From: a virus
Lineage: Duplodnaviria; Heunggongvirae; Uroviricota; Caudoviricetes
Virus record (IMG/VR): IMGVR_UViG_3300023179_004209
Span: 231,832-295,831 of that record
Length of the DNA: 64,000 bases
Reading direction: 5' to 3' (one strand)
Notes under the pieces: model-generated
Database searches by the model: none
Seen by the model: the letters and a program-made list of their open reading frames with translations, nothing else
What the model was told of the DNA's origin: nothing
Program-made: the position numbers and the translations under genes
Shown: piece by piece, positions 268-48,814 of the stretch
Position numbering within the stretch: position 1 is the first letter of the stretch
Layout: each line of letters starts with the position of its first letter

Positions 268-324
268 TGAATCTATTGATTTGTTTGATTTTGTGGTTGG
301 AAGAGAAAAAGTTAAAAAAAGTTG

Positions 325-353
325 TTGACTTCCCCGAAGAAATCCTGTAAAGT
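325..353 (+). promoter_or_regulatory. early promoter TTGACT-N17-TAAAGT
   Basis: -35 TTGACT 325-330, -10 TAAAGT 348-353, ATG at 363; member of repeated promoter family. Confidence 0.7.
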
Positions 354-362
354 ATAACCACG

Positions 363-629
363 ATGAAGATCAAATTGCTTGTTCTGGTTTCTCTGGTTCT
401 GGTTGGTGCTGGTTGTGATGGTAACACCGCTGCTAAAAGCTTTGGTGGTACTATGACGGTTGACTTGGAGAAGAACCAGAAGTTGGTGAATGTAACTTGG
501 AAGGATGGTGATACTCTGTGGTATCTTACTCGTCCTGCTCGTAGTGGTGAAACTCCTGAAACTTATACTTTCAAGGAAAAGTCTTCACTTGGTATTCTTG
601 ATGGTCAGGTGATTTTGATTGAACATTGA
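363..629 (+). CDS. small lipoprotein (signal peptide + lipobox-like VGAGC)
   Basis: ORF starts 9 nt after -10; MKIKLLVLVSLVLVGAGC. Confidence 0.6.
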   Translation: MKIKLLVLVSLVLVGAGCDGNTAAKSFGGTMTVDLEKNQKLVNVTWKDGDTLWYLTRPARSGETPETYTFKEKSSLGILDGQVILIEH

Positions 630-645
630 TAAAATATTACCCACG

Positions 646-861
646 ATGAAACTTTACGCTTTTGTTGTTTTTGAAACTGGTGGCTCTGGCGGTCTTGGCC
701 ATTATGGTAATCTTGTTAAGACTGGTTATGTTACCAAGAGTATTCTTGCTAGTAATGCTAATAAGTTTAGAAACAAACGAGTTAAAGTGATGTGTTCTGG
801 TGGTTATGTTTGTTATCCCAAGCGTAAACAAATTACTACTATTATTCCATTTTCAGTTTAA
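646..861 (+). CDS. hypothetical small protein (start moved to 646)
   Basis: ATG preceded by TAAAATATTACCCACG resembling the family -10/leader; in frame with track ORF 619..861. Confidence 0.5.
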   Translation: MKLYAFVVFETGGSGGLGHYGNLVKTGYVTKSILASNANKFRNKRVKVMCSGGYVCYPKRKQITTIIPFSV

Positions 862-881
862 TAATTTTTTGAAAAAAGTTG

Positions 882-910
882 TTGACTTCCCAGAAGAACT
901 CCTGTAGGAT
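882..910 (+). promoter_or_regulatory. early promoter TTGACT-N17-TAGGAT
   Basis: TTGACT 882-887, TAGGAT 905-910, ATG at 920. Confidence 0.7.
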
Positions 911-919
911 ATATCCACG

Positions 920-1045
920 ATGAACGCCGTCATTATTATTGTTACTTTGACATTTTCAGTTTTGTATTATCTTTCAGAGCTTGAAAGTGAAAGCTTTCTT
1001 CGTGATGTGGAGAGTGCAAAACGTGATTTGCGTGACTCTAACTAA
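920..1045 (+). CDS. 41-aa hydrophobic peptide
   Basis: ATG directly after promoter in the same ATATCCACG-ATG context as other family members; membrane-like. Confidence 0.45.
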   Translation: MNAVIIIVTLTFSVLYYLSELESESFLRDVESAKRDLRDSN

Positions 1046-1049
1046 AAAA

Positions 1050-1220
1050 ATGAAAATTAATCGTGAAGAACTTGTTATCGGATATATCGCTACTTTGGTT
1101 GCGGGTGTTTTATTTGCGCTCGGTCCACTTGGAAATGATCTAACAAAAGAAATGGCTTTGTTCTTTTTTAAACTGAGCGTTATTCTGTTTGTTATCTTTA
1201 GGGTAACAAAAGAAAAATAA
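1050..1220 (+). CDS. 56-aa membrane peptide
   Basis: internal ATG of track ORF 981..1220 after the stop of the previous peptide; hydrophobic. Confidence 0.35.
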   Translation: MKINREELVIGYIATLVAGVLFALGPLGNDLTKEMALFFFKLSVILFVIFRVTKEK

Positions 1221-1241
1221 AAAAACTAAATTATTTCCACT

Positions 1242-1484
1242 ATGATTGAAGAACCGGAATTGTCAATGAAGCTTAAGACATACACGGTGGTGTTGCGTAT
1301 AAATACGCTTGAGGATGAAAATACTGAGGGTGACCCTATTATTAGTGAATATTTTCAAAGTGAGTTAGAGAAGAAAATTAGAGAAGAACATATGTTTACT
1401 GATCAAAAAGGTGGAGCTTTGTTTCTTATTTCTAGAAATGTTGAGAATATTACGATGGTTCGGTCAATCTCAGCTTTCAAATAA
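1242..1484 (+). CDS. hypothetical acidic small protein
   Basis: ORF; ATG preceded by TATTTCCACT. Confidence 0.5.
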   Translation: MIEEPELSMKLKTYTVVLRINTLEDENTEGDPIISEYFQSELEKKIREEHMFTDQKGGALFLISRNVENITMVRSISAFK

Positions 1485-1501
1485 TTTTTGAAAAAAGTTG
1501 T

Positions 1502-1529
1502 TGACTTTTTGAATGGGGTGGTGTAAAGT
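1502..1529 (+). promoter_or_regulatory. early promoter TTGACT-N16-TAAAGT
   Basis: ATG at 1539 after ATTTCCACG. Confidence 0.7.
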
Positions 1530-1538
1530 ATTTCCACG

Positions 1539-1721
1539 ATGAAACTGATTGATGTTGATAACGCCGAGGTTGAAGTGGAAGATAGTTGGCAAGAGGAATG
1601 TCCCCAATGTGGTGACACGAATGTTCAATGCCACTACATCCCAAACTGGGATGCAACTCGTTGTTATGACTGCCTGGTTAACGAAGCGATCAAGTTTCAT
1701 TATCGGGTTGAAGAAAAGTAA
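1539..1721 (+). CDS. zinc-ribbon-like small protein (CPQC...CYDC)
   Basis: ORF; 4 Cys in two pairs. Confidence 0.55.
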   Translation: MKLIDVDNAEVEVEDSWQEECPQCGDTNVQCHYIPNWDATRCYDCLVNEAIKFHYRVEEK

Positions 1722-1730
1722 AAAAAGCGG

Positions 1731-1759
1731 TTGACTTCCCAGAGGAAAACCTGTAAAGT
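1731..1759 (+). promoter_or_regulatory. early promoter TTGACT-N17-TAAAGT
   Basis: ATG at 1769 after ATTTCCACG. Confidence 0.7.
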
Positions 1760-1768
1760 ATTTCCACG

Positions 1769-2002
1769 ATGAAGAACATCAATAAGTATAACGAGCGTAT
1801 TACCAAGTATAACGAGCGTATTACCAAGAACTGGAACGACTATTGTGATAAGCTTGAAGACTATTGCCGCCGTCGGCAAACCAAGAACCGCATCGCTGCC
1901 ATCCGCAAGACCATCAAGTATGTCAAGACGGGTGAGGCTGACAAGGAACTGGCTCTTCTCCTCAACCACCAGACAAGTATGCCTAAAAAAAGTTCACGAT
2001 AA
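1769..2002 (+). CDS. basic small protein with tandem KYNERIT repeat, GC-rich 3' half
   Basis: ORF behind promoter. Confidence 0.55.
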   Translation: MKNINKYNERITKYNERITKNWNDYCDKLEDYCRRRQTKNRIAAIRKTIKYVKTGEADKELALLLNHQTSMPKKSSR

Positions 2003-2005
2003 GGC

Positions 2006-2034
2006 TTGACTTTCGGGTGTGGTGATGGTAAAGT
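2006..2034 (+). promoter_or_regulatory. early promoter TTGACT-N17-TAAAGT driving a non-coding transcript
   Basis: No ORF downstream; transcript would start near 2041 (CAGTTGATCG). Confidence 0.55.
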
Positions 2035-2040
2035 ATTTTC

Positions 2041-2200
2041 AGTTGATCGTTAGATTCTAAAAGAATTGAAAATCAACTTCAGCTAACTCAAAGAGTGCCA
2101 GTCTATGAACCTTCGGGTGCCGAGCATGGGGCGACTGGTAATGTGTTGAGGAAATGGGAACCGGACCTGCTGACCAAACAATCAAAACCGGACGATTTTT
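2041..2200 (+). ncRNA. putative small RNA 1 (unknown function)
   Basis: promoter without ORF; GC-rich hairpins (CCTTCGGGTGCCGAGCATGGGGCG); T-run near 2196. Confidence 0.3.
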
Positions 2201-2211
2201 AGAAAAAGTTC

Positions 2212-2240
2212 TTTACAAGTCGGATAGTTCGTGGTAAATT
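2212..2240 (+). promoter_or_regulatory. promoter TTTACA-N17-TAAATT (copy 1 of a duplicated 40-nt promoter)
   Basis: identical 35-nt core repeated at 2497-2525. Confidence 0.5.
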
Positions 2241-2256
2241 AAATAATAAATAAATT

Positions 2257-2463
2257 ATGAATACCCGTGGATTCTACAAAACTACTATTACGTTTGAAGT
2301 GCTCAGTTTGGAACCTATTCCTGATGGAATGAGTTTGGAAGCAATTTCAACCATCGGTCATCCTATGAGTAATCCAAAACTTTCCCGTCTACAGATGAGT
2401 GAACGGGAGATGCGTGAAGAGCTCATAAAGATGGGTCACAATCCTGATTTCTTCAAATCGTAA
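2257..2463 (+). CDS. hypothetical small protein
   Basis: ORF. Confidence 0.45.
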   Translation: MNTRGFYKTTITFEVLSLEPIPDGMSLEAISTIGHPMSNPKLSRLQMSEREMREELIKMGHNPDFFKS

Positions 2464-2496
2464 TAGTGTTAGTCGTCTGATAAGTAAAAAAAGTTC

Positions 2497-2525
2497 TTTA
2501 CAAGTCGGATAGTTCGTGGTAAGAT
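2497..2525 (+). promoter_or_regulatory. promoter TTTACA-N17-TAAGAT (copy 2) driving a non-coding transcript
   Basis: followed by TTTTCAGTTGATGG as in small RNA 1; no ORF for about 950 nt. Confidence 0.5.
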
Positions 2526-2531
2526 ATTTTC

Positions 2532-3470
2532 AGTTGATGGGACCGGAAGGAATACGACTGGAAACCCTGAAACTAAAAGATTGACGGCATAACAACTTGG
2601 GAGAATGTAAGTTAACTTCATATTGCCCACAATGATTAAACGATTGCAATTCCGTGGAAGCAAGGAGCAGTCCGGTTAACTTTAATTCGACCAATGTAGC
2701 CATCCGGTTTCAATCCGGAGAACCAAGAAATAGAGGGCAGTGGGTTACGATTCACTGATAAATACTTGGATGTCAATCAACAATTTGTTAGTTATAGATG
2801 GTATTATATGAGTAGACGGAGAATGATGCCGACACGATTGTCGGTAATCGAACAGTAGGGGTATAATACAGGCAGTTATATGCGGACATTGAAGCTAACA
2901 AACCAATTTTTTAAGTTCTTTTTATAATTTGATTGAATATCTGATATTAGCTTAATTAGAGCCGTCTGTTAATTCAGCGAGGTGTAGTATCCAATCTACA
3001 TATCAGTAAAAATCAAATTGGTTGATGAGGTTCTAGACCAATCCAACATCTATAAAGCAGAGAAATTTGGGACTCTGCCATCAACCAAATGTTTTTTAAC
3101 CAAGCAATAGAGTTAGCTATCTTGACAAAGAATCAAATGACTCTGATAACAGCGTTGGGTGCTAGCAGTAACAACAAAGATCCCAAACGGAAACAGATAA
3201 TACGATTTTTTGCTTGGTTAATTCAATTTTTGAATAATATATACAGGCGGTCATTCTAAACTGATCTGATCAATTAGTGGTGAATGGGAGGTTCAAATCC
3301 TCTGTATGTTATTCAATAGCAAGTAACAGATAGACTATAGGTGTAGCATTCGGGCAATGCGCCGGTAATTACAGGAGACTAGGTTCAATTCCTAGACACT
3401 TACAACTTGGAACAAACGGGCGTTCTTAATTGAATATCCGGTGAAATCCTGAAAACTTGTTATTTTTTTC
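2532..3470 (+). ncRNA. ORF-free region with multiple hairpins, terminator-like elements and T-arm-like motifs (one or more sRNAs)
   Basis: no ORF >60 aa on + strand. 10-bp inverted repeats at 3016-3025/3078-3087 and 3097-3106/3209-3218. T-arm-like GGAGGTTCAAATCCTC (about 3287-3302) and CTAGGTTCAATTCCTAG (about 3375-3391). Confidence 0.3.
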
Positions 3471-3479
3471 ACTTTCCCC

Positions 3480-3508
3480 TTGACTTTTTTCCACGGGTAA
3501 CTTAATAT
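3480..3508 (+). promoter_or_regulatory. promoter TTGACT-N17-TAATAT
   Basis: ATG at 3518. Confidence 0.6.
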
Positions 3509-3517
3509 ATTTTTACA

Positions 3518-3691
3518 ATGAAATACAAGATGTTTGTTCTCCTTGAAGGCAAAAAGAAATTGATTGCTAGCACCAATAATTTCAGTGATTTTCAAACTCT
3601 TATGACTGAATTTGAAAAGTTTGAAATTCAATGGGAAGTTACTGAAAATGGTGATACTGTGTTTTCTACCTTTGCTTCTGTTTTGAACTAA
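3518..3691 (+). CDS. 57-aa hypothetical protein
   Basis: ORF below track cutoff, directly behind promoter. Confidence 0.45.
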   Translation: MKYKMFVLLEGKKKLIASTNNFSDFQTLMTEFEKFEIQWEVTENGDTVFSTFASVLN

Positions 3692-4082: not shown

Positions 4083-4274
4083 ATGAAAACTGAATATGAT
4101 TATTTAATTCTAGATGCAATGTCACAGTACGGTGGTAGTTTTGTAAAGCAATTGTCTAACCTTGCTAGGGTTGCGGATGCTACAAACTTTGCAAAGCTCA
4201 AGGTTACCTTTGCAAACTATTGGGAAGAATATGACCGTTTTCTTCCTGAATCTAACCAGAAACAGACGGTTTAA
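4083..4274 (+). CDS. hypothetical small protein
   Basis: ORF. Confidence 0.45.
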   Translation: MKTEYDYLILDAMSQYGGSFVKQLSNLARVADATNFAKLKVTFANYWEEYDRFLPESNQKQTV

Positions 4275-4286
4275 ACCGTGCCAGAA

Positions 4287-4318
4287 CCGCCCAGGATCCC
4301 TTATGGGCGGTTTTGTTT
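4287..4318 (+). terminator. Rho-independent terminator CCGCCCAGG..TGGGCGG + TTTT
   Basis: GC stem 4287-4293/4304-4310 and T-run. Confidence 0.65.
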
Positions 4319-4380
4319 GTCTGGCCAGGTGTCCAGATGGTTCCCACAAACCATGACCAAAAAAAAGTTTAAAAAAAGTT

Positions 4381-10041: not shown

Positions 10042-10064
10042 CCCCTAGGATAAAGCCATAGGGG
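10042..10064. repeat. IS end hairpin CCCCTAGG-ATAAAG-CCATAGGGG (right end, overlaps tnpB stop)
   Basis: 8-bp stem with A bulge; near-identical copy at 11323-11345. Confidence 0.6.
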
Positions 10065-11211
10065 CTTGTAATGCTGTTGCTTTCACAACAGGCTTACATA
10101 CATTTGGCTGGTTGACGACAGCCTGCCCGTAAGTCAGGTAATTAGTCTGTGATACGGGAAGTTTGGACAATTTAGCAATATTGATTGCCGCATTAATGTC
10201 CGCATCATAAATAAGTCCATTCTTAGAGTAAAATCTACAACCTCTTCTTTCTCCATCACGATTTCCAGTTACACTATCAATCTGTGATGTATAATAAGGG
10301 CGAACTAGTAGAACCAATTTACCTTGATTCTCTGCCTTATAGCTTATTACTCTACGAAGTTCAAATATTGGAACTTGTCCAATTGAACGCTTATTTTGAT
10401 ATTTATTTTTTTTCTTTTTTATACCGACAAGATTTTCAAGCACGATTGTATCTGCTTCTGTGTTTAAAACTTCATTAGCAATCAAATGTGTTTGATTTCT
10501 ATTTTTGTTAGATTCTTTATGTTTTAACTTACGAAGATGTCTTCTGGCACTTTTAGTGCTTTTGGATTTGAGACTATCTTTTAAATGTCTCAATCTACGC
10601 TTATCTCCATTAAACTTTCTATCAATAATTATTCTACCATCACTACAAGCTGCATTACGACGAATGCCGATATCTACTCCTAAAGCGAGTTTTTGTTTTA
10701 ATGGTTCTTTAGGTTTATTATCAAATGTAAATGATATAAATAATTTACCATCATTTTCATAAATTAGAGGATCTGTATATTCATATTTGTCCAATAATTC
10801 CTTTAGTTTAGGATACACTACAAATTTAAATGATTGTCTTCCAGAAGTAGTAGTTATACGGATTGAATATTTATCAGTTTTGTTTTTTGAATAAAGTCTT
10901 TTATCTAAACGCATGGAAAGGTTTTTCTTTTCAATTGATTTTTTTAATCTGTGTTTATTTGACTTTGTAGATTTATAACTTGATAAACATTCTTGTTCTG
11001 CTTTAATAATAACTTGTGATGGTATATTTGGATATTGTTTTCTAATGTTATTATAAACTTTAGAATGTAAAACTAACAAACTATTTTTTGTTTCATTGAA
11101 TTGATGTTGTGAAGCAAAATTAAATACAACTTTATGCATTTCAAGAATTGACTTTAAACTATCAAAGTCTTCTTGATTTTTCATTAAAAGTTGTGTATTA
11201 TATGATATCAC
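10045..11211 (-). CDS. tnpB: TnpB (OrfB) RuvC-like RNA-guided nuclease family protein
   Basis: RuvC-I GVDIGIRRNAA, RuvC-II IVLENLVG, RuvC-III YDADINAAINIAK; zinc-finger Cys mostly lost. Confidence 0.75.
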   Translation of the reverse strand: MISYNTQLLMKNQEDFDSLKSILEMHKVVFNFASQHQFNETKNSLLVLHSKVYNNIRKQYPNIPSQVIIKAEQECLSSYKSTKSNKHRLKKSIEKKNLSMRLDKRLYSKNKTDKYSIRITTTSGRQSFKFVVYPKLKELLDKYEYTDPLIYENDGKLFISFTFDNKPKEPLKQKLALGVDIGIRRNAACSDGRIIIDRKFNGDKRRLRHLKDSLKSKSTKSARRHLRKLKHKESNKNRNQTHLIANEVLNTEADTIVLENLVGIKKKKNKYQNKRSIGQVPIFELRRVISYKAENQGKLVLLVRPYYTSQIDSVTGNRDGERRGCRFYSKNGLIYDADINAAINIAKLSKLPVSQTNYLTYGQAVVNQPNVCKPVVKATALQAPMALS

Positions 11212-24215: not shown

Positions 24216-25991
24216 ATGGCAATCAATATTTTTACACATATACGTAGAGGTTTATATGATAATGTTTACAATTGTATAGAAAAAGAAAAGGTGGATGTCA
24301 ATCAAAGAGATGATGACACTGGCAATCCACCACTGGTTGTTGCGGTAGAAGAAAACCAAATAGAAATAGTCAGATTACTATTAAACCACGGTGCTGATGC
24401 CAATTGTAAAGATTGGACCAGTAAAAATACCGCATTGGATGTAGCTGAACAAAAAGGTTTCAAAAATATTGCAGAAGTATTACAACAAAGAGGTGCAAAA
24501 TACAGTAGTGGTAGTAGTTTCCATTTAGCTGCAAAGAATGGTGATATCGTTTCTATCGAAGAAATGTTGAATAAAGGATGTGATATCAATGAAGTTGACG
24601 CAGGTAAAGGTTGGACTGCTCTACATTACGCTGTTAATTATGGACAAAAACACTTGGTTGAATATTTGATTATAAGAGGTGCAGATGTCAACAAGAAAGA
24701 TTTCTTGGGTAAAAACAATCCTATTGATGTATTATCCAACACCAATAGAGGTGAAATTGTTAAATTATTGAATAAATACGGTGCTAAATCCGCAGGTGGT
24801 GTTAGTATTCATTTCTGCGCAGAAACTGGTGATTTTGAAGGTGTACAATCATTCTTTGATAAAGATGGTAAAGTTAATGGTAGAGATGAAAAGAATGGAT
24901 GGATGCCATTACATTATGCCGTTAACGCTAACGATGTTGATATGGTGGAGTTTTTGGTACATTTGGGAGCAAATGTTAACGGTGCAGATTTTAAAGGTGA
25001 AATTGCTCCGTTAGACATTGCATTCAAGACTGGGAATGTAGAAATGCAAACATATCTACAATCCAAAGGTGCGCAAAGAAAGAAGAAACATGATACTGGT
25101 GGTGGTGGCAAAGATGTAACCATCTATATTACAGAAGAAGTCAAGAAACAAATTGCAATGTTTATTGAAAAGCGTGAAAAAGAAGAAGCTGCAATAAAGA
25201 AACATGAAGAAGAACAAACTGCAAAAGAACCTAAAAAGAAAGATGCACCAGCTAAGAAAATTAACTGGAAAGATTTCTTGAAACTTAAAGATATTCCAGT
25301 TGTAGAAAAGAAAGAAGAAAAGAAGGTAGAAGTGGTTAAACCCGTCAAACAAATTGTCAAGAAAGTTGAACAAGTTGATATAGAAGTTAAATCCAGTAGA
25401 TTACAATTGGATGTTGAACAAGAAGGTTACATATTCTTCATGGACATTGTTGCTTATAGTAAGAAAACAACTGATGAACAAAAGAAAGCTTGTAAAGATT
25501 TGGGTGCATTGGTTAAGTCTACAATGCAATATAAAACCGCTAATGCTCTTGAAAAGTTAATTATATTACCTACTGGTGACGGTATGGTATTGGGATTCTT
25601 TACTTATTTGGAAGATGCAATGAATTGTGCTATTGCTATAGCTAAAGCAGTAAAGGATAGACCAGATTTACAAATGAGAATGGGTGTACATTGTGGATCA
25701 GTAATTCCAATGGAAGACATCAATGGTAATCTTAACATTAGTGGTGACGGTATTAATTATGCTCAAAGAGTAATGGATGCGGGTGAAAGTAATCATTTAT
25801 TGGTTAGTTCAGCAGTAATGTTAAAGTATGACCGACCACCATATGTTTTGGTAAACGATCTGGGAGATGTAGTTGTAAAACATGGTGTAGTGATGCATTT
25901 GTATAGTTTACATGGTAGTGACTTTGGCAATAAAGCATTTCCATCTAGTAGAGTGAAGAAGGCAGAACCTACTGATTCAATCAAAAAATAG
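24216..25991 (+). CDS. ankyrin-repeat protein fused to class III nucleotidyl cyclase homology domain
   Basis: about 8 ANK repeats (GADANCKD, TALHYAV, PLHYAV...). K/E-rich linker. CHD motifs FFMDIVAYS, PTGDGMV, MRMGVHCGSV, SGDGINYAQRV. Confidence 0.65.
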   Translation: MAINIFTHIRRGLYDNVYNCIEKEKVDVNQRDDDTGNPPLVVAVEENQIEIVRLLLNHGADANCKDWTSKNTALDVAEQKGFKNIAEVLQQRGAKYSSGSSFHLAAKNGDIVSIEEMLNKGCDINEVDAGKGWTALHYAVNYGQKHLVEYLIIRGADVNKKDFLGKNNPIDVLSNTNRGEIVKLLNKYGAKSAGGVSIHFCAETGDFEGVQSFFDKDGKVNGRDEKNGWMPLHYAVNANDVDMVEFLVHLGANVNGADFKGEIAPLDIAFKTGNVEMQTYLQSKGAQRKKKHDTGGGGKDVTIYITEEVKKQIAMFIEKREKEEAAIKKHEEEQTAKEPKKKDAPAKKINWKDFLKLKDIPVVEKKEEKKVEVVKPVKQIVKKVEQVDIEVKSSRLQLDVEQEGYIFFMDIVAYSKKTTDEQKKACKDLGALVKSTMQYKTANALEKLIILPTGDGMVLGFFTYLEDAMNCAIAIAKAVKDRPDLQMRMGVHCGSVIPMEDINGNLNISGDGINYAQRVMDAGESNHLLVSSAVMLKYDRPPYVLVNDLGDVVVKHGVVMHLYSLHGSDFGNKAFPSSRVKKAEPTDSIKK

Positions 25992-40929: not shown

Positions 40930-41571
40930 ATGTTAAAATCATTATTATCACTACTATTAACTACAACAATATTTGCAGCGGAATTTGAATCGGTAAATTA
41001 TTATACAAAGAATTACCTATTTGACGCTCAAATATATTCTGTCAATACTTTCGTATCCGAAAACACACTTAGCCATCAACTAGGTGATTTTACGCCGCAT
41101 CTTGACTATGTACAATACCAAGGTTTGGATAAATATAAAGAAAGTGACTTTGGATTTGGTAGTGAATATAAACTAACAGATAAACTAAATTTGGATGTAG
41201 GTAGTTGGTATTACTATTATTACAGTGCAGGTGACCATTATTTTGAACCATACGCATCATTAACTTATGATTGGATAGTATCACCAACATTATATTTTAG
41301 TATGATAACATACAATAATACACCTAGAGCAACAATAAGCTTTGATTATAACAAAGATTTTAATGAAAAGCTGCATTTGAATGTAAGACCAGTGATTGGT
41401 ACTGCAGACTATGATGTAAGATATGGTTATTATGGTATAGTATTTGGTTTGGATTACAATGTAAATAAGAATTTTACATTGTTTACTGTTACAGAAGTTG
41501 ATAAACCTTTTAGTTCACCTGACGATAGTATCGTATACACTTATTCATTTGGAATCAAATTATCCCTATGA
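40930..41571 (+). CDS. secreted Tyr-rich beta-rich protein (possible outer-membrane protein)
   Basis: signal peptide MLKSLLSLLLTTTIFAA; alternating aromatic pattern. Confidence 0.5.
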   Translation: MLKSLLSLLLTTTIFAAEFESVNYYTKNYLFDAQIYSVNTFVSENTLSHQLGDFTPHLDYVQYQGLDKYKESDFGFGSEYKLTDKLNLDVGSWYYYYYSAGDHYFEPYASLTYDWIVSPTLYFSMITYNNTPRATISFDYNKDFNEKLHLNVRPVIGTADYDVRYGYYGIVFGLDYNVNKNFTLFTVTEVDKPFSSPDDSIVYTYSFGIKLSL

Positions 41572-43007
41572 AATTTCTTAAATTCAATTTGAGATTCGCA
41601 TTATCTACCAGCACACTATTCATTTTAGTGTTGGTAAGTATGGTATATTTCTTTTTGTTAATATTTGCAATTGAAGATATTGCAAAGAATAGTTTGAAAA
41701 GAAGTTTAAATACCTCGGTGAATATTTGTAGCAGTATTCTTGACCCAAATGAAATTGAAAAGTTAACTGAATATGAACAAGAAAAAAGCGAAGTATTTAT
41801 CAATTACAGAAAGTCTATCAAAGAAATAAAGAAAGAAGTAGAAGATATTAAATTTGTTTATATTGTAAGACAAACGGGTACAAATATCACTTATATAATA
41901 GATTGTGGTGATGATGTATCCGAACAAGCTAAATTGGGTGAAATATATGATGATGCGGGTGATGGATTGAAAGAATTATTTAACAATCCAGTTGAAGGTG
42001 TAACATTTGAGAAAGAATATTATACAGACAAGTGGGGTACATTTTTATCCGCATATAAACCAATATTTAAAAACGGTAAAATCATATATGCAGTTTGCAG
42101 TGATATCAAGTCAGTTGATGTTGAAAAGTATATATCAAATTATAAAAAGAAGTTTACTTGTGCATTTTTTACATTGTTAATTGTTATATTTCCAATCATA
42201 TGTTGGATAACAAATATGATTAGAAGACCACTTAATAAGTTAAGAGATGAAATTCTCAAGTTAAAAGATTTGGATGTAGATGAACATATTGATTTTAAGA
42301 GTAGTATCAGTGAAGTAAATGATATGATTGACGCAACTGATAAGGTAAAAACTGGTTTAAGATCATTTTCAAAGTATGTACCTGACAAGGTTGTAAAACA
42401 ATTGATAAGTCAAGGTAAGGATGCAAAAATTGGTGGGGAAAAAGAATATGTAACAATACTATTTAGTGACATTGAAGGATTTACAAGTATATCTGAAAAC
42501 AATGATACTCAAGAAGTTGTAACTGCATTAAATGAATATTTTGATATCTATGTACATTGTTTGGAAGAAAGTGGTGCAACTGTTGATAAATTCATTGGTG
42601 ACGCTGTAATGTCATTTTGGAATGCACCAAGTAAAGTTGAAAACCATGAATTTATTGCGGTCAAAACTGCAATGGAAATTGTCAAAGAAATTAATAAATT
42701 GAATCAAAAATGGAAAACTGAAGGTAAGAAATTTACATTCAAAACCAGAATAGGTATCAATTCTGGTGAAGTTATTGTCGGTAATATTGGTTCGACAAAC
42801 CGTATCAATTATACTGTTACTGGTGATCCTGTTAATTTGGCATCAAGATTAGAAGCGTCAAATAAACAATACAATACAACAATTTTAGTAAGTGAATCTG
42901 TTTATAATAAAACAAAAGAGTCAATTGATTATAATTATATTGACACAGTGAAGGTAAAAGGAAAAGAAATATATGTAAAAGTATATCAACCCGTTAAACT
43001 CAAGTAA
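41568..43007 (+). CDS. transmembrane sensor class III adenylyl/guanylyl cyclase
   Basis: TM1, about 150-aa extracytoplasmic domain, TM2, linker, then CHD. CHD motifs FSDIEGFTSISE, KFIGDAVMSFWNAP, RIGINSGEVIVGNIGS, TVTGDPVNLASRLE. Confidence 0.75.
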   Translation: MKFLKFNLRFALSTSTLFILVLVSMVYFFLLIFAIEDIAKNSLKRSLNTSVNICSSILDPNEIEKLTEYEQEKSEVFINYRKSIKEIKKEVEDIKFVYIVRQTGTNITYIIDCGDDVSEQAKLGEIYDDAGDGLKELFNNPVEGVTFEKEYYTDKWGTFLSAYKPIFKNGKIIYAVCSDIKSVDVEKYISNYKKKFTCAFFTLLIVIFPIICWITNMIRRPLNKLRDEILKLKDLDVDEHIDFKSSISEVNDMIDATDKVKTGLRSFSKYVPDKVVKQLISQGKDAKIGGEKEYVTILFSDIEGFTSISENNDTQEVVTALNEYFDIYVHCLEESGATVDKFIGDAVMSFWNAPSKVENHEFIAVKTAMEIVKEINKLNQKWKTEGKKFTFKTRIGINSGEVIVGNIGSTNRINYTVTGDPVNLASRLEASNKQYNTTILVSESVYNKTKESIDYNYIDTVKVKGKEIYVKVYQPVKLK

Positions 43008-45266: not shown

Positions 45267-45470
45267 ATGAAAATCAAAATGTTAAAAAATATTGATGTAG
45301 ACATTGACAAAACCAAACTCCAAGAAGTTTGGCCAAAATATCTCCACCGCAATGATGTTTTTAATGTTGACAAAATTGAAACCATCTGCGAAGATAAAGT
45401 CAATCTGGTACTAGACAACGGAGATGTCCTACTTGAAGTACCAAACAAGTCATTCACTCCAGTTTTTTAA
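45267..45470 (+). CDS. hypothetical small protein
   Basis: ORF. Confidence 0.45.
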   Translation: MKIKMLKNIDVDIDKTKLQEVWPKYLHRNDVFNVDKIETICEDKVNLVLDNGDVLLEVPNKSFTPVF

Positions 45471-45478
45471 AAAAAGTG

Positions 45479-45507
45479 TTGACTACGATCAGTTTCAATG
45501 GTAAATT
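45479..45507 (+). promoter_or_regulatory. promoter TTGACT-N17-TAAATT for tRNA-Arg
   Basis: immediately upstream of tRNA. Confidence 0.55.
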
Positions 45508-45530
45508 GATCATGTTCTTTAAATCATAAT

Positions 45531-45606
45531 GTCCCTATAGCTCAAACGGATAGAGCATCTGCCTTCTAAGCAGATGATCCAGGTTCGATTCCTGGTGGGG
45601 ATACCA
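45531..45606 (+). tRNA. tRNA-Arg (anticodon TCT)
   Basis: hand-folded cloverleaf. Acceptor GTCCCTA/TGGGGAT with wobbles; D-stem GCTC/GAGC; anticodon arm TCTGC-CTTCTAA-GCAGA; T-arm CCAGG-TTCGATT-CCTGG; A+CCA. Confidence 0.7.
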
Positions 45607-45668
45607 TTTTTTGAACATATTTATAAATTTGTATATATTTATATGTTCAAACTTCTCTAAAAAAGAAG

Positions 45669-45696
45669 TTGATTCTTTGAAAATTTGCGGTAAGAT
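45669..45696 (+). promoter_or_regulatory. promoter TTGATT-N17-TAAGAT followed by the AGTAGTAAGT..GTTCTTT motif
   Basis: one of four promoters in the RNA cluster followed by GTAGTAAGT. Confidence 0.45.
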
Positions 45697-45823
45697 AAAG
45701 AAGTAGTAAGTAATTTGTTCTTTCAGCATGGTGGGAGAAGCACTCCTCTAGAACATCTTCGTATGGCGGAACTGCCTTGACCTTTAATCAAAGGGGGTCA
45801 CCAACGAAAGAAACAAATTACTG

Positions 45824-45852
45824 TTGACAAAAGAATAAATCGTGGTAAGATA
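45824..45852 (+). promoter_or_regulatory. promoter TTGACA-N17-TAAGAT followed by AGTAGTAAGTTCTTTAAAA
   Basis: as above. Confidence 0.5.
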
Positions 45853-45936
45853 AAAAAGTAGTAAGTTCTTTAAAATAAAAATATGAAAGTAAAGGATTAC
45901 TAATCTTTTGCTTATAATGTATAATATATATTCTAT

Positions 45937-46368
45937 ATGGAACATAGTAAACAAAAAGGCAATTTAGGATTTTCTGCAACTCTCAAAGAATTACATAAAC
46001 TTGGATATAATGTATTTACTGAAGTTGGAGATTACTCTAAAATAGATATGATAGTTGAGGTAAAGAATAAATTAATTAAACTTCAAGTTAAATACATTAC
46101 GGATTCAAATGGAAAAGTAACTTTAAACTTACAAAAAAGTGGACCAAATGGGTATAGATACAAGTATACAGAACTTGATATAGATTTGTTCAGTATTTAC
46201 TTACCTACTTTAGATAAAGTAATTTTTGTACCTGCTAAATTAGCTTGTAAGAATACTAAAGCATTTAGCATTAGATTTAATGAAAGTAAAAATCATCAAA
46301 GTAAACATATTAATTATATAAGTGAATTTGAAGATTTAAATAAAACACTAAACAATTTAGTTCTTTAA
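45937..46368 (+). CDS. hypothetical protein embedded in the tRNA cluster
   Basis: ORF; stop codon lies within the GTTCTTTAAAA motif. Confidence 0.5.
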   Translation: MEHSKQKGNLGFSATLKELHKLGYNVFTEVGDYSKIDMIVEVKNKLIKLQVKYITDSNGKVTLNLQKSGPNGYRYKYTELDIDLFSIYLPTLDKVIFVPAKLACKNTKAFSIRFNESKNHQSKHINYISEFEDLNKTLNNLVL

Positions 46369-46375
46369 AATTTAT

Positions 46376-46451
46376 GGGATTGTAGCTCAATTGGCAGAGC
46401 AGTTCGCTTTTAACGAATTGGTTGACGGTTCAAGTCCGTCCGGTCCCACCA
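46376..46451 (+). tRNA. tRNA-Lys (anticodon TTT)
   Basis: GGGATTG..CGGTCCC acceptor; anticodon loop CTTTTAA; T-arm GACGG-TTCAAGT-CCGTC; A+CCA. Confidence 0.7.
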
Positions 46452-46457
46452 TTTAAT

Positions 46458-46532
46458 GGCGTTATCGTCTATCGGCTAGGACACTGGACTTTCACTCCGG
46501 TAAGAGGGGTTCGATTCCCCTTAACGCTACCA
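46458..46532 (+). tRNA. tRNA-Glu (anticodon TTC)
   Basis: GGCGTTA..TAACGCT acceptor; anticodon loop CTTTCAC; T-arm GGGG-TTCGATT-CCCC. Confidence 0.65.
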
Positions 46533-46721
46533 TTTTGTTTGTCCGTTGCTTAAAAGAAACGGAATGGTGGAGGGTAAATAACCAAAACACCCCTAGAGTT
46601 GGAAGTTCTCTTAAAAAACTTCTTGGTTGCGGGGATGAGTCATGGTATACTTTGTTTGTTGGGTGGACAAAGTATTCAATAAACACACCCAACACAATTT
46701 ATATAGTTCTTTAAAATTCAA

Positions 46722-46878
46722 TAGCTGGCGGCAGGTTAGATCTGGGGGTGGCTCATAACCATTCATTAAGTAGGTGCGATTCCTATGCTTCAGCAACCAT
46801 TTGAATGGCTGGGGTTTCAGCAAACGACGAATCCTCATAAGGTTTGTTAAGTGGGGGCAGCACCCATACCAGCTACCA
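46722..46878 (+). ncRNA. tRNA-like / mini tmRNA-like element (acceptor-like stem + T-like arm + CCA; internal GCA AAC GAC GAA TCC TCA TAA)
   Basis: 5' TAGCTGG pairs with 3' CCAGCTA followed by CCA; hairpin GTGGG-GGCAGCA-CCCAT; exact 12-mer of canonical tmRNA tag start at 46820. Confidence 0.3.
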
Positions 46879-46970
46879 TTTACGCCCGGAGAATATCCGA
46901 TCAATACGCAACACGGAAAGAAACCTCCTCTAAAGGGAAACTTGCTAGTAGCGGGCGACGATTTTAGATG

Positions 46971-46998
46971 TTGACAAAACATCAATGTGTGATAAGAT
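46971..46998 (+). promoter_or_regulatory. promoter TTGACA-N16-TAAGAT
   Basis: drives short RNA ending at terminator 47109-47141. Confidence 0.5.
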
Positions 46999-47004
46999 GA
47001 TTTT

Positions 47005-47141
47005 AAGGTTAGTTGAGTCCGTTACCTTAGATTAAAAACTCAACAGTGTTTGATCAGAGCTTCTATAATAAATGATCTCTCGACCAGTAGATAGCTGGTT
47101 ACATTTTCAGTGGTTTTGAAGATAAAACCACTCGGATTTTT
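47005..47141 (+). ncRNA. putative small RNA between promoter and terminator
   Basis: hairpin GTTGAGT..ACTCAAC and terminator hairpin AGTGGTTTT..AAAACCACT + TTTTT; no ORF. Confidence 0.4.
47109..47141 (+). terminator. Rho-independent terminator
   Basis: 9-bp stem + CGGATTTTT. Confidence 0.6.
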
Positions 47142-47166
47142 AGTTAGTTCTTTAACAAAACAATTT

Positions 47167-47252
47167 GCGGGGTGTCAGAAGTCTGGTATCTGGCTACGCT
47201 CATAACGTAGTGCCATTTGGCCTCGGAGGTTCAAATCCTCCCCCCGCTACCA
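47167..47252 (+). tRNA. long-variable-arm tRNA with anticodon CAT (identity uncertain)
   Basis: D-stem CAGA/TCTG; anticodon arm CTACG-CTCATAA-CGTAG; 14-nt variable arm; T-arm GGAGG-TTCAAAT-CCTCC; 6-bp acceptor GCGGGG/CCCCGC; ends ..TACCA. Confidence 0.5.
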
Positions 47253-47258
47253 TTTAGT

Positions 47259-47350
47259 GGCCTCAAGATGTAAGGTGCATGGGGAGACTTATAATCTCTA
47301 TAATCGCTCGATTGGCGTTCTGGGCAGTTCGATTCTGCATGAGGCTACCA
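47259..47350 (+). tRNA. type II tRNA, Leu/Tyr-like body with anticodon loop CTTATAA (apparent anticodon TAT)
   Basis: acceptor GGCCTCA/TGAGGCT; anticodon stem GGAGA/TCTCT; long variable arm; T-loop TTCGATT; A+CCA. Confidence 0.5.
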
Positions 47351-47529
47351 TTTTTGATCGTGTAATGGAATTAGACATACGGATGATGGGTAGCACAAAG
47401 TTACGTTACTTGGAGTGGTTTCCAAGTGTAGTTGAAGCAAATTGTGTCCATCAGACGGGTGCTAGATATAGTCTAACCAACCTTGAAACTAGTTGTGGGT
47501 ATTCCAGTCCCACCACGATCACATTTTAC

Positions 47530-47613
47530 GGGTGTGTGATGTAATGGCAGCCATGCAGCACTCAAAATGCTGTGGAGAAATCCGTGGGGGTTCAAGTCCC
47601 TCCATACCCACCA
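47530..47613 (+). tRNA. tRNA-Leu (anticodon CAA)
   Basis: acceptor GGGTGTG/CATACCC; anticodon arm CAGCA-CTCAAAA-TGCTG; long variable arm; T-loop TTCAAGT; A+CCA. Confidence 0.6.
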
Positions 47614-47660
47614 TTTTTATTGTTCATTGAAAATTAGTAGACGCAAAGTAATTTGTATTT

Positions 47661-48350
47661 ATGTCTTCCAAAATACTACTTATTAGTATGAAAAAGATAG
47701 ATATACAAGAGTTAACAATTGCAACAAAAACATCTATATCATACGCTGAAGTTTTAAAAAAGTTAAGACTGAAGCAAAGTGGTTCAATGCAAAGTCGTAT
47801 TAAGAACGAGATTAAAAATCTTGGACTAGATATTAGTCACTTTACTGGACAAGCGTGGTGTAGAGGTAAAAATTCTTATCAAGACAAAAGAATAAGAAAC
47901 AAATATTCTGATGAAATTATTTTTACTGAAAATAGTAATGTTTCAAACGTTGTAGTAAAAAACAGATTGAAGTCAAATCCAAATTATATACATAAATGTG
48001 AATTATGTTCTATTAAAGAGTGGTATGACCCGTTTGAAAACAAAATCAAACCAGTAAATTTAGAACTTGACCATATAAATGGCAATGAAAGAGATAACAG
48101 AAAAGAAAATTTAAGATTGATTTGTTCTAATTGTCATAGTTTTACTCCTACATATAAAGGGAGAAACATTAATAAAACTTTTAGAAATGGTGAAAAGAAA
48201 ATATCTGATGATGTTTTGATAGAACAATTAAAAACAAAAAACATAAGACAAACTTTAATTTCAGTTGGAATGTCTGCTTCTGGTGAAAATTATGAAAGAT
48301 GTAAAATTTTGAAAAACCAGTTGACAACAAAGAATGATGTGGTAAGATGA
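47661..48350 (+). CDS. HNH homing endonuclease inserted between tRNA genes
   Basis: ELDHINGNERDNRKENLRLICSNCHSF HNH motif. Confidence 0.7.
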   Translation: MSSKILLISMKKIDIQELTIATKTSISYAEVLKKLRLKQSGSMQSRIKNEIKNLGLDISHFTGQAWCRGKNSYQDKRIRNKYSDEIIFTENSNVSNVVVKNRLKSNPNYIHKCELCSIKEWYDPFENKIKPVNLELDHINGNERDNRKENLRLICSNCHSFTPTYKGRNINKTFRNGEKKISDDVLIEQLKTKNIRQTLISVGMSASGENYERCKILKNQLTTKNDVVR

Positions 48351-48351
48351 A
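48323..48351 (+). promoter_or_regulatory. promoter TTGACA-N17-TAAGAT inside the 3' end of the HNH gene, followed by AGTAGTAAGT..GTTCTTTAAAA
   Basis: same architecture as 45824 promoter. Confidence 0.5.
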
Positions 48352-48387
48352 AGAGTAGTAAGTGATGGTTCTTTAAAAACTTTTAGT

Positions 48388-48476
48388 GGGCAAGTGGCGA
48401 AATTGGAGAACCGCAAGGGACTTAAAATCCCTTACATTAGAAACGCTGTGGGTTCGAATCCCACCTTGCCTACCAT
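48388..48476 (+). tRNA. tRNA-Leu (anticodon TAA)
   Basis: acceptor GGGCAAG/CTTGCCT; anticodon arm AGGGA-CTTAAAA-TCCCT; long variable arm; T-arm GTGGG-TTCGAAT-CCCAC; A+CCA. Confidence 0.65.
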
Positions 48477-48499
48477 TTTTTGATAGTTCTTTAACAATT

Positions 48500-48810
48500 T
48501 AAGATAGTGGCGGAACAACAATTAGTTTAGTTGTAACGCACAATATATGGCGTTGAAAAACGTTGTATATTGGTTGGAGTAAGAATCATGGAGGGTAAGT
48601 CTATGGAGAATTTGAGGTCGTTCAACCTCAAATTTGAGCGTATCGGGACCGTAGCTAAAATTTAAATGATAAATCGTAGCCCGTTGTGGGGAAAACAAAA
48701 TCCCATCAGTCATCAACACAAGGAGTAATTACCCGTGTGGACTGTGGATGAATAACCAGTCATGATTAAGAAACTTGGAGGTAATCATTAGTCCTTCCTA
48801 TTTTGATTTA
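48500..48810 (+). ncRNA. uncharacterized structured non-coding segment
   Basis: no ORF; hairpins GAGGTCGTTCAACCTC, CGTTGAAAAACG; preceded by GTTCTTTAACA motif. Confidence 0.25.
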
Positions 48811-48814
48811 ATAT

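Follow-up and report, generated by a model that had tools for sequence, protein, structure and literature searches.

A gene-free stretch near the beginning of the window, by which we mean the whole 64,000-nucleotide piece of DNA analysed here, is a real and conserved locus of non-coding RNA in an uncultivated, large and low-GC phage from fresh water. As read from its sequence and those of its relatives, the locus is a chain of folded RNA modules, the predicted 3' end of which consists of two anticodon-less look-alikes of tRNA. In about 40 metagenomic relatives, found in lake metagenomes, the locus takes the form of a mosaic built of RNA modules that are each closed by a stem. The best reading, which we hold with moderate confidence, is that of an early non-coding RNA operon giving stable RNAs that mimic tRNAs. 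Its features, as predicted on the + strand, are the following.

2006-2034, +: promoter P1, TTGACT-17-TAAAGT, TG-extended; would drive the S1 RNA from a start near 2041
2041-2200, +: S1, structured small RNA with a 5' hairpin (~2044-2078), core helices, a pseudoknot and a U-run
2200-2237, +: promoter cassette copy A, with promoter P2 at 2212-2240, TTTACA-17-TAAATT; would drive orf68
2257-2463, +: orf68, gene of a 68-aa protein, flanked by the promoter copies and distinct from the RNA
2485-2522, +: promoter cassette copy B, with promoter P3 at 2497-2525, TTTACA-17-TAAGAT
2531-2578, +: M1a, 5' leader hairpin (AGUU/AACU, GGG/CCC, CCGG/CUGG)
2579-2778, +: M1b, multi-helix module; closing stem GAUUGAC 2579-2585 / GUCAAUC 2772-2778
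2784-2905, +: M3; closing stem UUUGUUAG 2784-2791 / CUAACAAA 2895-2902; contains the hairpin 2828-2845
2906-2927, +: spacer, a U-run and then a AGUUCUUU box; recombination or insertion point in relatives
2928-3017, +: M3b; closing stem UUUGAUU 2928-2934 / AAUCAAA 3011-3017; inner stem CUGAUAU/AUAUCAG and a variable hairpin
3018-3097, +: M4; closing stem UUGGUUGAUG 3018-3027 / CAUCAACCAA 3079-3088 (inverted repeat I2); hairpin GCAGAG/CUCUGC; U6 at 3092-3097
3096-3221, +: M5; closing stem UUAACCAAGCAA 3096-3107 / UUGCUUGGUUAA 3210-3221; 5 compensatory pairs
3234-3312, +: tRL1, first tRNA-like element, with an acceptor-like helix, a long arm and a canonical T-arm
3316-3469, +: D3, 3' domain, a 156-nt domain present in every relative covering it
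3480-3508, +: next early promoter, TTGACT-17-TAATAT, driving a 57-aa gene (3518-3691); 3' boundary of the locus

Extent and coding status

Excluding orf68, the region is non-coding. A sequence-only reading had taken it for one ORF-free block of 1.45 kb with no plausible ORF on either strand; this block is split by orf68, which is a conserved gene, and the truly ORF-free parts are 2041-2200 (module S1) and 2531-3469 (~0.94 kb). The orf68 protein is 82% identical in L003/L004 (relatives are given L numbers), with nucleotide differences of 5/5/16 by codon position, and has no match in Pfam. It is hardly credible at all that the remainder is an unrecognised protein-coding sequence, either with recoded stops or made of several micro-ORFs. 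ORFs of 30-56 aa do exist there, e.g. 3089-3259, but TAA, TAG and TGA are each present in all six frames of 2526-3480, which rules out a recoded (stop-reassigned) gene; the ORF just named, with 56 aa the longest remaining, is broken by two in-frame stops in L013 and has no ATG in L006, and the substitutions track base-pairing and not codon periodicity.

Promoters and predicted transcripts

The duplicated promoter described earlier is borne out as a direct repeat of 38 nt (2200-2237 / 2485-2522, 97% identical, repeat family D5), each copy containing a TG-extended promoter, and three promoters (P1, P2 and P3) were found where two had been counted. Promoters are conserved upstream of M1a in the relatives: the -35 and -10 hexamers of P3 are kept while its spacer is variable, and the -35 is TTGACA in L006 and L012. 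L012 and L023 keep the block 2006-2047 with 95% conservation, upstream of other RNA modules, and the stretch between the promoter copies (2225-2484) is absent from L013/L014. Based on these signals, we infer early transcription of + strand RNAs from two sigma-70-type promoters: P1 would give the ~160-nt S1, and P3, with a start site near 2532, a long non-coding transcript of ~0.94 kb reaching from ~2532 to ~3469. This transcript would be made of the independently closed modules M1a, M1b, M3, M3b, M4, M5, tRL1 and D3, its last 235 nt holding both tRNA mimics, and would end in a long-range helix and then U7. The putative terminator is the U7 run at 3463-3469, directly after helix P1 of D3, which is A/U-rich and encloses ~130 nt; the terminator scan made no call there.

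Mosaic arrays in the relatives

Comparison of the arrays shows that the modules are shuffled among relatives. The M1a leader at the 5' end and tRL1/D3 at the 3' end recur in nearly every array covering them, while modules in the middle have been exchanged, dropped or added, and many of the junctions fall at spacers of a U-run plus AGUUCUUU or within shared closing-stem sequences. In many relatives the array also contains a tRNA-Asp(GUC), called by ARAGORN, which is unusual and has an encoded CCA, and in the distant relative L022 a similar neighbourhood includes tRNA-Lys and tRNA-Arg. The arrays of L023 and L058 are very different or minimal, that of L058 having no tRL1, and the core common to all relatives is only ~156-235 nt. 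Our D3 model (R1) finds one full-length match per relative, with scores of 88-183 bits. The search that yielded most relatives used a 20-mer lying within tRL1, and the conservation of the 5' half of tRL1 is partly circular for this reason; among relatives found through protein, tRL1 is 95-99% identical, compared with 90-96% for the adjacent DUF7448 gene. Among 50,697 phage records, neither megablast nor blastn found a match to the region, hence no isolate relative, and tblastn with two large proteins gave remote matches only. One viral contig match, L060, proved to be a chance hit in GC-rich coding DNA.

This layout bears on the idea that the locus is one giant ornate RNA working intact in the manner of GOLLD and ROOL, possibly with higher-order assembly, to which we assign a low, though by no means trivial, probability. 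Its architecture parallels the published description of GOLLD, in which the 3' region is universally conserved, the 5' region is less so, linker tRNAs are sometimes present, and the carriers are phages, near tRNA islands (PMC12286853). Correspondingly, the leader and tRL1/D3 recur here around a variable middle that sometimes includes tRNA-Asp, the array has a single promoter and a single U7 run at its end, and the habitat is again lake metagenomes; this GOLLD-like layout (conserved 3' part, variable 5' part, occasional tRNA, setting in a phage and tRNA island) is a resemblance only. On the other hand, three permissive Rfam scans (window 1900-3600, L012 3400-5850 and window 3225-3475) gave no match to GOLLD or ROOL at E<=10, the common core is small and the L023 and L058 arrays depart widely, and no covarying long-range helices between modules were found. 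Whole modules are moreover swapped between close relatives, which fits independent cassettes better than one three-dimensional fold.

Covariation and strand

The case for RNA structure rests on covariation, because single-sequence folding gives weak z-scores and energies that are not significant. Lack of covariation in relatives would have spoken against the locus, and all named helices carry compensatory changes, so that the feature goes beyond chance. In D3 (alignment A6), 32 of 42 pairs change on both sides and 96.6% of cells pair, a level of covariation that none of 500 shuffles reaches, with at most 17 in slid controls. A structure-blind alignment of tRL1 plus D3 still has 19 pairs changing on both sides, with 97.8% of cells pairing. 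For S1 (alignment A7), 94.7% of cells pair and 5 pairs change on both sides, against 0-1 in slid controls. Together with many selected G.U wobbles, which are valid solely in + strand RNA, these figures show that selection on the + strand maintains the secondary structures. The MFE z-score points to the same strand, being -2.2 there and -0.3 on the - strand.

Modules S1 and M1a to M6

The predicted core of S1 consists of the helices 2080-2083/2169-2172, 2087-2091/2146-2150 and 2097-2103/2133-2139 and a UUCG-capped hairpin, accompanied by a pseudoknot (CCGG 2161-2164 / CCGG 2188-2191) and then a U-run at 2196-2200. In L024, L032 and L056, S1 is found within the array, 3' of M1a. A CCA end for S1 was considered and ruled out, since ACCA is not conserved among the S1 variants. 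Most arrays on contigs that extend to the 5' end have M1a, which is 95-100% identical wherever present; in L001 and L012 the interior of M1b is swapped for a far shorter version, and its covariation is weak because few variants are available.

Among the middle modules, M3 has 5 compensatory pairs in 12 variants (for example GCCGACA/UGUCGGU versus GCUGAUG/CGUCAGU), and contains the GC hairpin pointed out before, GCCGACACGATTGTCGGT at 2828-2845, which is real. Its 3' end resembles that of a tRNA: the stem is followed by A and then CCA (2903-2905), continuing AUUUUUU, and this CCA is the sole CCA[AT]TT[TA] site within 2000-3500. M3b and M4 together have 6 compensatory pairs; the inner stem of M3b changes from CUGAUAU/AUAUCAG to CUGUUGU/ACAACAG in relatives, and the hairpin of M4 from GCAGAG/CUCUGC to GUGAAG/CUUCAC. 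M4 also has a pseudoknot that is a candidate only, CCAA/UUGG, which becomes CCAG/CUGG in L012 and L014, a single clear type of compensatory variant in an ambiguous register. The two inverted repeats already noticed (3018-3027/3079-3088 and 3096-3107/3210-3221) are present as the closing stems of M4 and M5. What had looked like a terminator hairpin with a T-run near 3080-3095 is instead the closing stem of a ~70-nt two-hairpin module (M4), followed by U6; a simple terminator scan made no call at this stem and U6, the sole call in the region being the T-arm of tRL1. In many relatives, the place of M5 is taken by M6, an unrelated stem-closed module with a covarying stem, which ends U-CCA or A-CCA and continues AUUUU.

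The two tRNA-like elements

Both T-arm motifs reported from the sequence are real (3287-3303 and 3379-3395), and the acceptor-like pairing near them, described as partial, amounts to 7/7 at a tRNA-like distance. Leaving aside the annotated tRNAs, just four T-arm stems of the window are perfect over 5 bp and have 7/7 acceptor pairing at some distance; those of tRL1 and tRL2 are the sole two with a canonical TTC loop and pairing at a tRNA-like distance, while the other two (60727 on the + strand and 30933 on the - strand) have TGC loops and A/T-only pairing.

In tRL1, an A/U-rich acceptor-like helix (3234-3242/3304-3312) would be followed by a GG-containing single strand, a D-stem being doubtful, and then by a long arm (3252-3263/3275-3286) and the T-arm (3287-3291/UUCAAAU/3299-3303). 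It has neither an anticodon loop nor CCA. Its T-stem pairs alternate between G-C and A-U across relatives, and its acceptor helix differs by three both-side changes from the L016/L057 type; in L023, tRL1 is reduced to a minihelix of acceptor and T-arm. The second element, tRL2 (3338-3402), is a predicted 65-nt cloverleaf, which is also the MFE fold of the isolated sequence. It has a 7-bp acceptor stem (3338-3344/3396-3402), a D-stem (3346-3349/3357-3360) whose loop has the GG required by the elbow, then a stub arm (3362-3375) and the T-arm at 3379-3395. The stub, with 4-5 bp and a loop of 3-5 nt, takes the place of the anticodon arm, and its sequence covaries freely; across 31 variants, the GG of the D-loop and the T-loop GUUCRAnUC hardly vary or do not vary at all, and most variants have G3.U70 (GU in 19/34). 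The T-arm, acceptor and D-loop features are thus clearly tRNA-like by sequence and pairing. Having no anticodon, tRL1 and tRL2 would both be unable to decode, and their tails, ATTCAATA and CAACTTGG, have no encoded CCA, unlike the phage's own tRNAs. Within D3, the helices P1 (3316-3324/3455-3463) and P2' (3327-3331/3446-3451) enclose tRL2 and a hairpin (3413-3443), and tRL2 would sit in the three-way junction that they close; since P1 and P2' covary strongly around tRL2, D3 probably works as an intact domain and not as an excised tRNA-like piece.

Decayed tRNA genes had been named among the candidates, and pseudogenes of a former tRNA island would explain the sub-threshold tRNA score of 17.3 bits, the real-looking tRNA-Asp in the relatives' arrays and the tRNA-Lys and tRNA-Arg of L022. 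We nevertheless hold such a decaying cluster to be highly unlikely, since helices foreign to tRNA (the stub arm, P1, P2' and the hairpin) are maintained by numerous compensatory changes, tRL1 exceeds the DUF7448 gene in identity among the relatives found through protein, and most modules are without any tRNA-like feature.

T-arm plus acceptor sequences are also typical of attP cores. Such likeness, and the fact that promoters fire into an A/T-rich gene-free stretch, would suit an element acting at the DNA level, namely a replication origin, a pac site (an origin or packaging region had been proposed) or an attP with the 3' half of a host tRNA. This is extremely unlikely in our judgement: there are no iterons or tandem repeats and no skew signal, and selection acts on RNA pairs of the + strand, including G.U. 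Both acceptor strands are present and, rather than match one fixed tRNA of a host, they covary within the phage lineage, and Pfam finds no integrase domain among 30 window ORFs. A scan of bacterial genomes with the D3 motif gave two chance matches in unrelated bacteria, without a clue to a prophage or host.

Search of known families and partner proteins

The Rfam scan proposed with the first reading matched no curated family (Rfam 15), so that the locus belongs to none of them; at gathering thresholds, the whole window and nine loci gave true tRNAs only, and the three permissive scans added nothing stronger than a weak tRNA match. The best match to the tRNA model (RF00005) is tRL2 with 17.3 bits, below the 29-bit threshold, tRL1 has no match, and ARAGORN makes no call in 2000-3500. 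Among the marks of a tRNA, the 7-bp acceptor stem, the T-arm GTTCRANYC and the D-loop GG are found, while the 5-bp anticodon stem with a 7-nt anticodon loop is replaced by the stub arm. For tmRNA, ARAGORN has no call and the Rfam model aligns only to a 17-nt T-arm (8.9 bits, in L012); neither CCA nor a tag ORF is seen, G3.U70 being nonetheless present in most tRL2 variants. There is no Rfam match to Y RNA (YrlA), and the 30 window ORFs scanned with Pfam include no TROVE (Ro) or RtcB domain, and among possible partner proteins no CCA-adding enzyme or nuclease.

Spacers, CCA ends and the proposed explanation

The order of a U-run and then a AGUUCUUU box also links the true tRNAs of this phage at 45.5-49.1 kb, and in L006 and L012 inserted modules are flanked by duplicates of the box. 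The AGTTCTTT box is overrepresented in the window (17 copies, with 4.6 expected), and 8 of its 9 + strand copies fall within the two RNA arrays. Considered as a candidate promoter class of its own, it overlaps the -35 hexamer in P2 and P3 but lies within transcribed leaders in the tRNA cluster. By blastn, the tRNA cluster has no homology to any of the array modules. All nine tRNAs called in the window have tails beginning ACCA, eight of them ending ACCATTT and the ninth ACCATCTT. RNase E of E. coli cleaves polycistronic tRNA precursors 1-3 nt past the encoded CCA (PMC2190699).

On the reading as an early operon of tRNA-mimic stable RNAs, the array would be transcribed early and then, more speculatively, cut in its A/U-rich spacers, in some cases after stem-N-CCA as in the phage tRNA cluster, by the host enzymes of tRNA maturation, RNase E and RNase P, giving abundant and stable small RNAs. 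It weighs against such processing that M3 is the sole module of the window's own array ending N-CCA, that tRL1 and tRL2 carry no CCA themselves, and that P1 and P2' hold tRL2 within D3. The tRNA-like pieces might offer an elbow and an acceptor stem to a tRNA-recognising factor of the host or phage, which would be titrated or redirected. A bolder and distinctly tentative proposal is a new class of phage RNA, an early, cassette-shuffled array of stable RNAs whose constant tRL1 and D3 would serve as an anticodon-less decoy or adaptor protecting or reprogramming the tRNA pool. Its partner would recognise the tRNA elbow or acceptor end, examples being a host anti-phage toxin that targets the acceptor end, RNase P, the CCA-adding enzyme or the ribosome.

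Comparison with known systems

Phage RNAs associated with tRNA islands (GOLLD, ROOL and RNAC/RNAD) have been known for years, in T4 for decades, without an assigned function. The present locus is a compact and sharply defined case, having a 156-nt core with very strong covariation; the non-decoding tRNA mimic at this core points to tRNA-recognising machinery as the partner, and the shuffling of modules among ~40 closely related lake phages provides a natural series of deletions and insertions. It is also a sign that abundant freshwater phages contain a whole layer of tRNA-like genes which the standard annotation tools (ARAGORN, Rfam 15) overlook.

In kind, the locus appears to resemble T4 RNAC/RNAD and GOLLD/ROOL, lying outside GOLLD/ROOL by model and being compared with RNAC/RNAD by description only. 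RNAC and RNAD (species 1 and 2) are non-coding stable RNAs of the T4 tRNA region (PMC3014915). The suggestion of phage sRNAs of this sort finds support in kind, as the locus holds covarying + strand RNAs, some of them tRNA-like, and shares its spacer grammar with the true tRNA cluster of the same phage. Common to both are stable non-coding RNAs (predicted here) of a large lytic phage, with or like tRNAs. T4 RNAC/RNAD are presumably matured by the host tRNA-processing enzymes. The present RNAs differ from them in forming a separate array of ~8 modules, which follow early promoters and lie 42 kb away from the true tRNA cluster; this array is highly mosaic, and its 3' end would be a tRNA mimic embedded in a three-way junction.

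Like GOLLD and ROOL, the locus is phage-borne, large, heavily structured and tRNA-associated (PMC12286853, PMC5737381), and like GOLLD it occurs in lakes. It differs from them in having no covariance-model match, in its conserved core of ~156-235 nt, which is itself tRNA-like, and in a variable part that is a string of self-closed cassettes and not a linker.

With the tRNA-like domain (TLD) of tmRNA, YrlA and mascRNA, the elements share an acceptor stem and T-arm with the elbow determinants kept and the anticodon arm missing or stubby. The TLD of tmRNA has a GG-containing single strand in place of a D-stem, and the same is predicted in tRL1 and in the L058 form of tRL2; unlike tmRNA, the locus has no CCA, tag ORF or pseudoknot ring, and unlike in YrlA, the acceptor ends are open here and the stub arm is capped.

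In T4-type phages, early genes are shuffled by means of promoter cassettes (PeSL). Here too, repeated early-promoter cassettes flank small units and act as recombination points, L013/L014 lacking the stretch between the promoter copies; the difference is that the shuffled units are mostly RNA modules, with many of the junctions at spacers or closing stems.

Genomic setting and coding content

The window is part of a large uncultivated phage and has a low G+C content, about 32%. Along its first 8 kb, strong promoters of nearly identical sequence (AAAAAGTTGTTGACTT-N17-TAAAGT) follow one another, each with a small ORF 8-10 nt on its 3' side. The early genes at 300-3520 start 8-10 nt past the -10 hexamer (...TAAAGTATTTCCACGATG) without a Shine-Dalgarno sequence, and judging by this spacing their mRNAs would be nearly leaderless. 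Our searches found no isolate phage related to the region at the DNA level and only remote matches at the protein level; the nearest sequences are IMG/VR and lake-metagenome contigs of at most 230 kb. Several other features of the window are recorded here. A small early ORF (1769-2002) contains a perfect 21-nt tandem duplication at 1784-1825 (AAGTATAACGAGCGTATTACC x2). On the opposite strand, within the early region, a 388-aa ORF (10045-11211) with OrfB_IS605 and Cas12f1-like TNB domains encodes a TnpB-type nuclease. Further along are an ankyrin-repeat protein with a C-terminal nucleotidyl-cyclase domain (24216-25991), a second adenylate/guanylate cyclase (41568-43007) and a T4 Rnl1-type RNA ligase of the tRNA-repair type (55673-56764).

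The sequence-only reading had described 2040-3480 as free of ORFs, which is wrong: 2257-2463 codes for a 68-aa protein, 82% identical in other phage contigs, whose substitutions by codon position (5/5/16) show third-position bias. The duplicated promoter it reported does exist, as a 38-nt direct repeat (2200-2237 and 2485-2522, 97% identical) that is a promoter cassette. Two relatives (L013 and L014) lack the interval between the copies (2225-2484), the expected outcome of recombination between them. Truly non-coding are 2041-2200 (module S1) and 2531-3469 (the array), where TAA, TAG and TGA each occur in all six frames, and hidden coding is disfavoured. The longest ORF left, of 56 aa (3089-3259), was rejected, with two interruptions in L013 and no start codon in L006.

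A mosaic array among relatives

Relatives were collected through the neighbouring DUF7448 protein, through a 20-mer from the tRNA-like element tRL1 scanned over a metagenome collection, and through a degenerate 3' motif scanned over viral contigs. Overall, about 40 loci have a homologous stretch without genes; it measures 0.35 to 2.4 kb and is a mosaic. The leader hairpin M1a stands behind the promoter in most arrays extending to the 5' end, and tRL1 with the following domain D3 recurs at the 3' end. The middle modules differ between arrays in presence and order, with duplications and exchanges; M5 and the unrelated module M6 stand in for each other, and S1 can occupy a position inside the array. 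Many relatives carry a tRNA-Asp(GUC) with an encoded CCA (ARAGORN) between window positions 2778 and 2784. In L013 (2388-2462) and L006 (1029-1103) this tRNA has an odd T-loop (TGCGAAT, G at position 55), lacks the D-loop GG and scores under the Rfam tRNA threshold. In another relative (L012), neither ARAGORN nor Rfam calls the module at 4140-4345; its acceptor stem (GAGCGCG/CGCGCTC) resembles that of a tRNA, its hairpin GCAGGTATCGAATCCTGC resembles a T-arm, and about 150 nt are inserted internally.

Structure and covariation

Each module has its own terminal closing helix, in a beads-on-a-string layout, and the array helices are under selection. Comparison with relatives, proposed earlier as a check for conserved structure, shows helices kept by compensatory changes. 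For 3234-3478 (tRL1 and D3), 26 variants were aligned with MAFFT and pairs were taken from RNAalifold: 97.8% of cells pair over 62 predicted pairs, and 19 pairs change on both sides; none of 500 shuffles is as good, and slid controls reach at most 7. We then refined the 3' domain (3312-3467) by hand and built a covariance model. The refinement added helix P2' (CAGAU 3327-3331 with AUC(C)UG 3446-3451), in which the central G-C pair is flipped to C-G in the L016/L036 type. With the model, each relative yields a single full-length hit (88-183 bits), and the more distant phages searched yield none. In its alignment, which is biased towards structure by being fitted to the model, pairing holds in 96.6% of cells and both sides change in 32 of the 42 pairs (slid controls at most 17); the MAFFT alignment, made independently, gives a concordant result.

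Compensatory pairs number five in M3, six in M3b/M4 and five in M5, and among six variants of S1 five pairs change on both sides, including a pseudoknot helix directly 5' of the U-run. Both inverted repeats noticed earlier were recovered (3018-3027/3079-3088 and 3096-3107/3210-3221), as was the GC hairpin at 2828-2845, whose helix covaries (GCCGACA/UGUCGGU vs GCUGAUG/CGUCAGU). Function is placed in the + strand RNA because of many conserved G.U pairs and a strand-biased MFE z-score (-2.2 on the + strand vs -0.3 on the - strand); an origin, pac or attP site is disfavoured.

tRNA-like elements

Both T-arm motifs of the sequence-only reading are present (3287-3303 and 3379-3395). A whole-window scan, annotated tRNAs excluded, gives four perfect 5-bp T-arm stems with 7/7 acceptor pairing at some distance. 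Only those in tRL1 and tRL2 combine a canonical TTC loop with pairing at a tRNA-like distance; in the other two, at 60727 and 30933, the loop is TGC and the pairs are all A/T.

tRL2 (3338-3402, 65 nt) folds as a cloverleaf in isolation. Its 7-bp acceptor stem covaries at every pair, with G3.U70 in most variants; the D-arm has a near-invariant GG, the T-loop GUUCRAnUC is invariant, and the "anticodon" arm is stubby, with 4-5 bp and a loop of 3-5 nt. The most distant variant (L058) has a 9-nt GG-containing strand in place of the D-stem. The element is not free-standing; P2' and helix P1 of D3 close a three-way junction of which it is one arm. A U7 run lies immediately 3' of P1, and the next promoter follows. 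tRL1 (3234-3312) has an A/U-rich acceptor-like helix, in which a direct reading of the sequences gives three both-side changes relative to the L016/L057 type. The other parts of tRL1 are a long arm, a canonical T-arm and a single strand containing GG, and in L023 the element is reduced to a minihelix of acceptor and T-arm. A CCA end is absent from both elements, and the tails of all nine phage tRNAs begin with ACCA (ACCATTT in eight). Decayed tRNA genes are disfavoured.

It is firmly established that this is a conserved + strand non-coding RNA locus of self-closed structured modules with two anticodon-less tRNA mimics at its end. Transcription from promoters P1 (2006-2034) and P3 (2497-2525), termination at U-runs and early timing are likely, as we infer.

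Features shared with the tRNA cluster

M3 ends in stem-A-CCA-AUUUUUU, followed by AAGUUCUUU, and M6 and several extra modules of relatives have covarying stems with N-CCA-AUUUU ends. The window has 17 copies of the box AGTTCTTT where 4.6 are expected, an enrichment of nearly four-fold. On the + strand, eight of the nine copies precede RNA module starts, either in the early array region or in the tRNA cluster (45.3-49.2 kb).

Copies of the box in the two RNA arrays
2207, 2492, 2914, 45864, 46359, 46705, 47146, 48485; + strand; AGTTCTTT box

The box is a candidate processing site, protein-binding site or promoter element. In E. coli polycistronic tRNA precursors, RNase E cuts 1-3 nt after the encoded CCA, after which RNase P generates the 5' ends (PMC2190699). 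From the CCA/U-run ends, the box and this E. coli processing we infer a tRNA-type maturation of the array. With moderate confidence, stable small RNAs would arise from the modules through the tRNA-processing machinery, and the tRNA-like units would work by tRNA mimicry and engage a factor that recognises the elbow or the acceptor stem of tRNA. In the main rival reading, the whole transcript functions in one piece, as a single ornate RNA like GOLLD or ROOL. That helices P1 and P2' covary strongly around tRL2 argues that D3, at least, stays intact; the free swapping of middle modules points to independent cassettes.

The tRNA cluster itself (45300-49200) includes unusual genes: a tRNA-Met(CAT) of 87 nt with a long variable arm (47166-47252), two tRNA-Ile(TAT) of 92-93 nt (47259-47350 and 48898-48990), and a 109-nt tRNA (49001-49109) with an insertion of about 35 nt in the anticodon arm, scoring 55 bits in Rfam without an ARAGORN call. 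An HNH endonuclease ORF (47661-48350, +) and a putative second ORF (about 45940-46340) are inserted. The inter-tRNA stretches 46533-47165, 47351-47529 and 48476-48897 have no ORF of at least 200 aa and look like further non-tRNA modules; they show no sequence homology to the early-array modules. Two end in CCA-TTT (46876 and 48885), and a hairpin at 46770-46786 is T-arm-like with a TGCGATT loop.

Comparison with known RNA families

The Rfam scan suggested by the sequence-only reading returned no family at threshold: Rfam 15 has no match for the locus at gathering thresholds, and three permissive scans gave a single sub-threshold match, tRNA at 17.3 bits on tRL2, with none to GOLLD, ROOL, tmRNA or Y-RNA. 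ARAGORN calls neither tRNA nor tmRNA at the locus. In kind, the locus is like RNAC and RNAD of T4, two small RNAs encoded in its tRNA region whose roles are unknown (PMC3014915). In architecture, with its conserved 3' part, variable 5' part and occasional tRNA, it is like GOLLD, which has a conserved 3' and a variable 5' region, at times linker tRNAs, and occurs in phages near tRNA islands (PMC12286853, PMC5737381). By the Rfam searches it belongs to none of GOLLD, ROOL, tmRNA and Y-RNA; with the T4 RNAs it was compared by description. The large IMG/VR catalogue of unnamed candidate viral RNAs (PMC10690425) may contain pieces of the locus.
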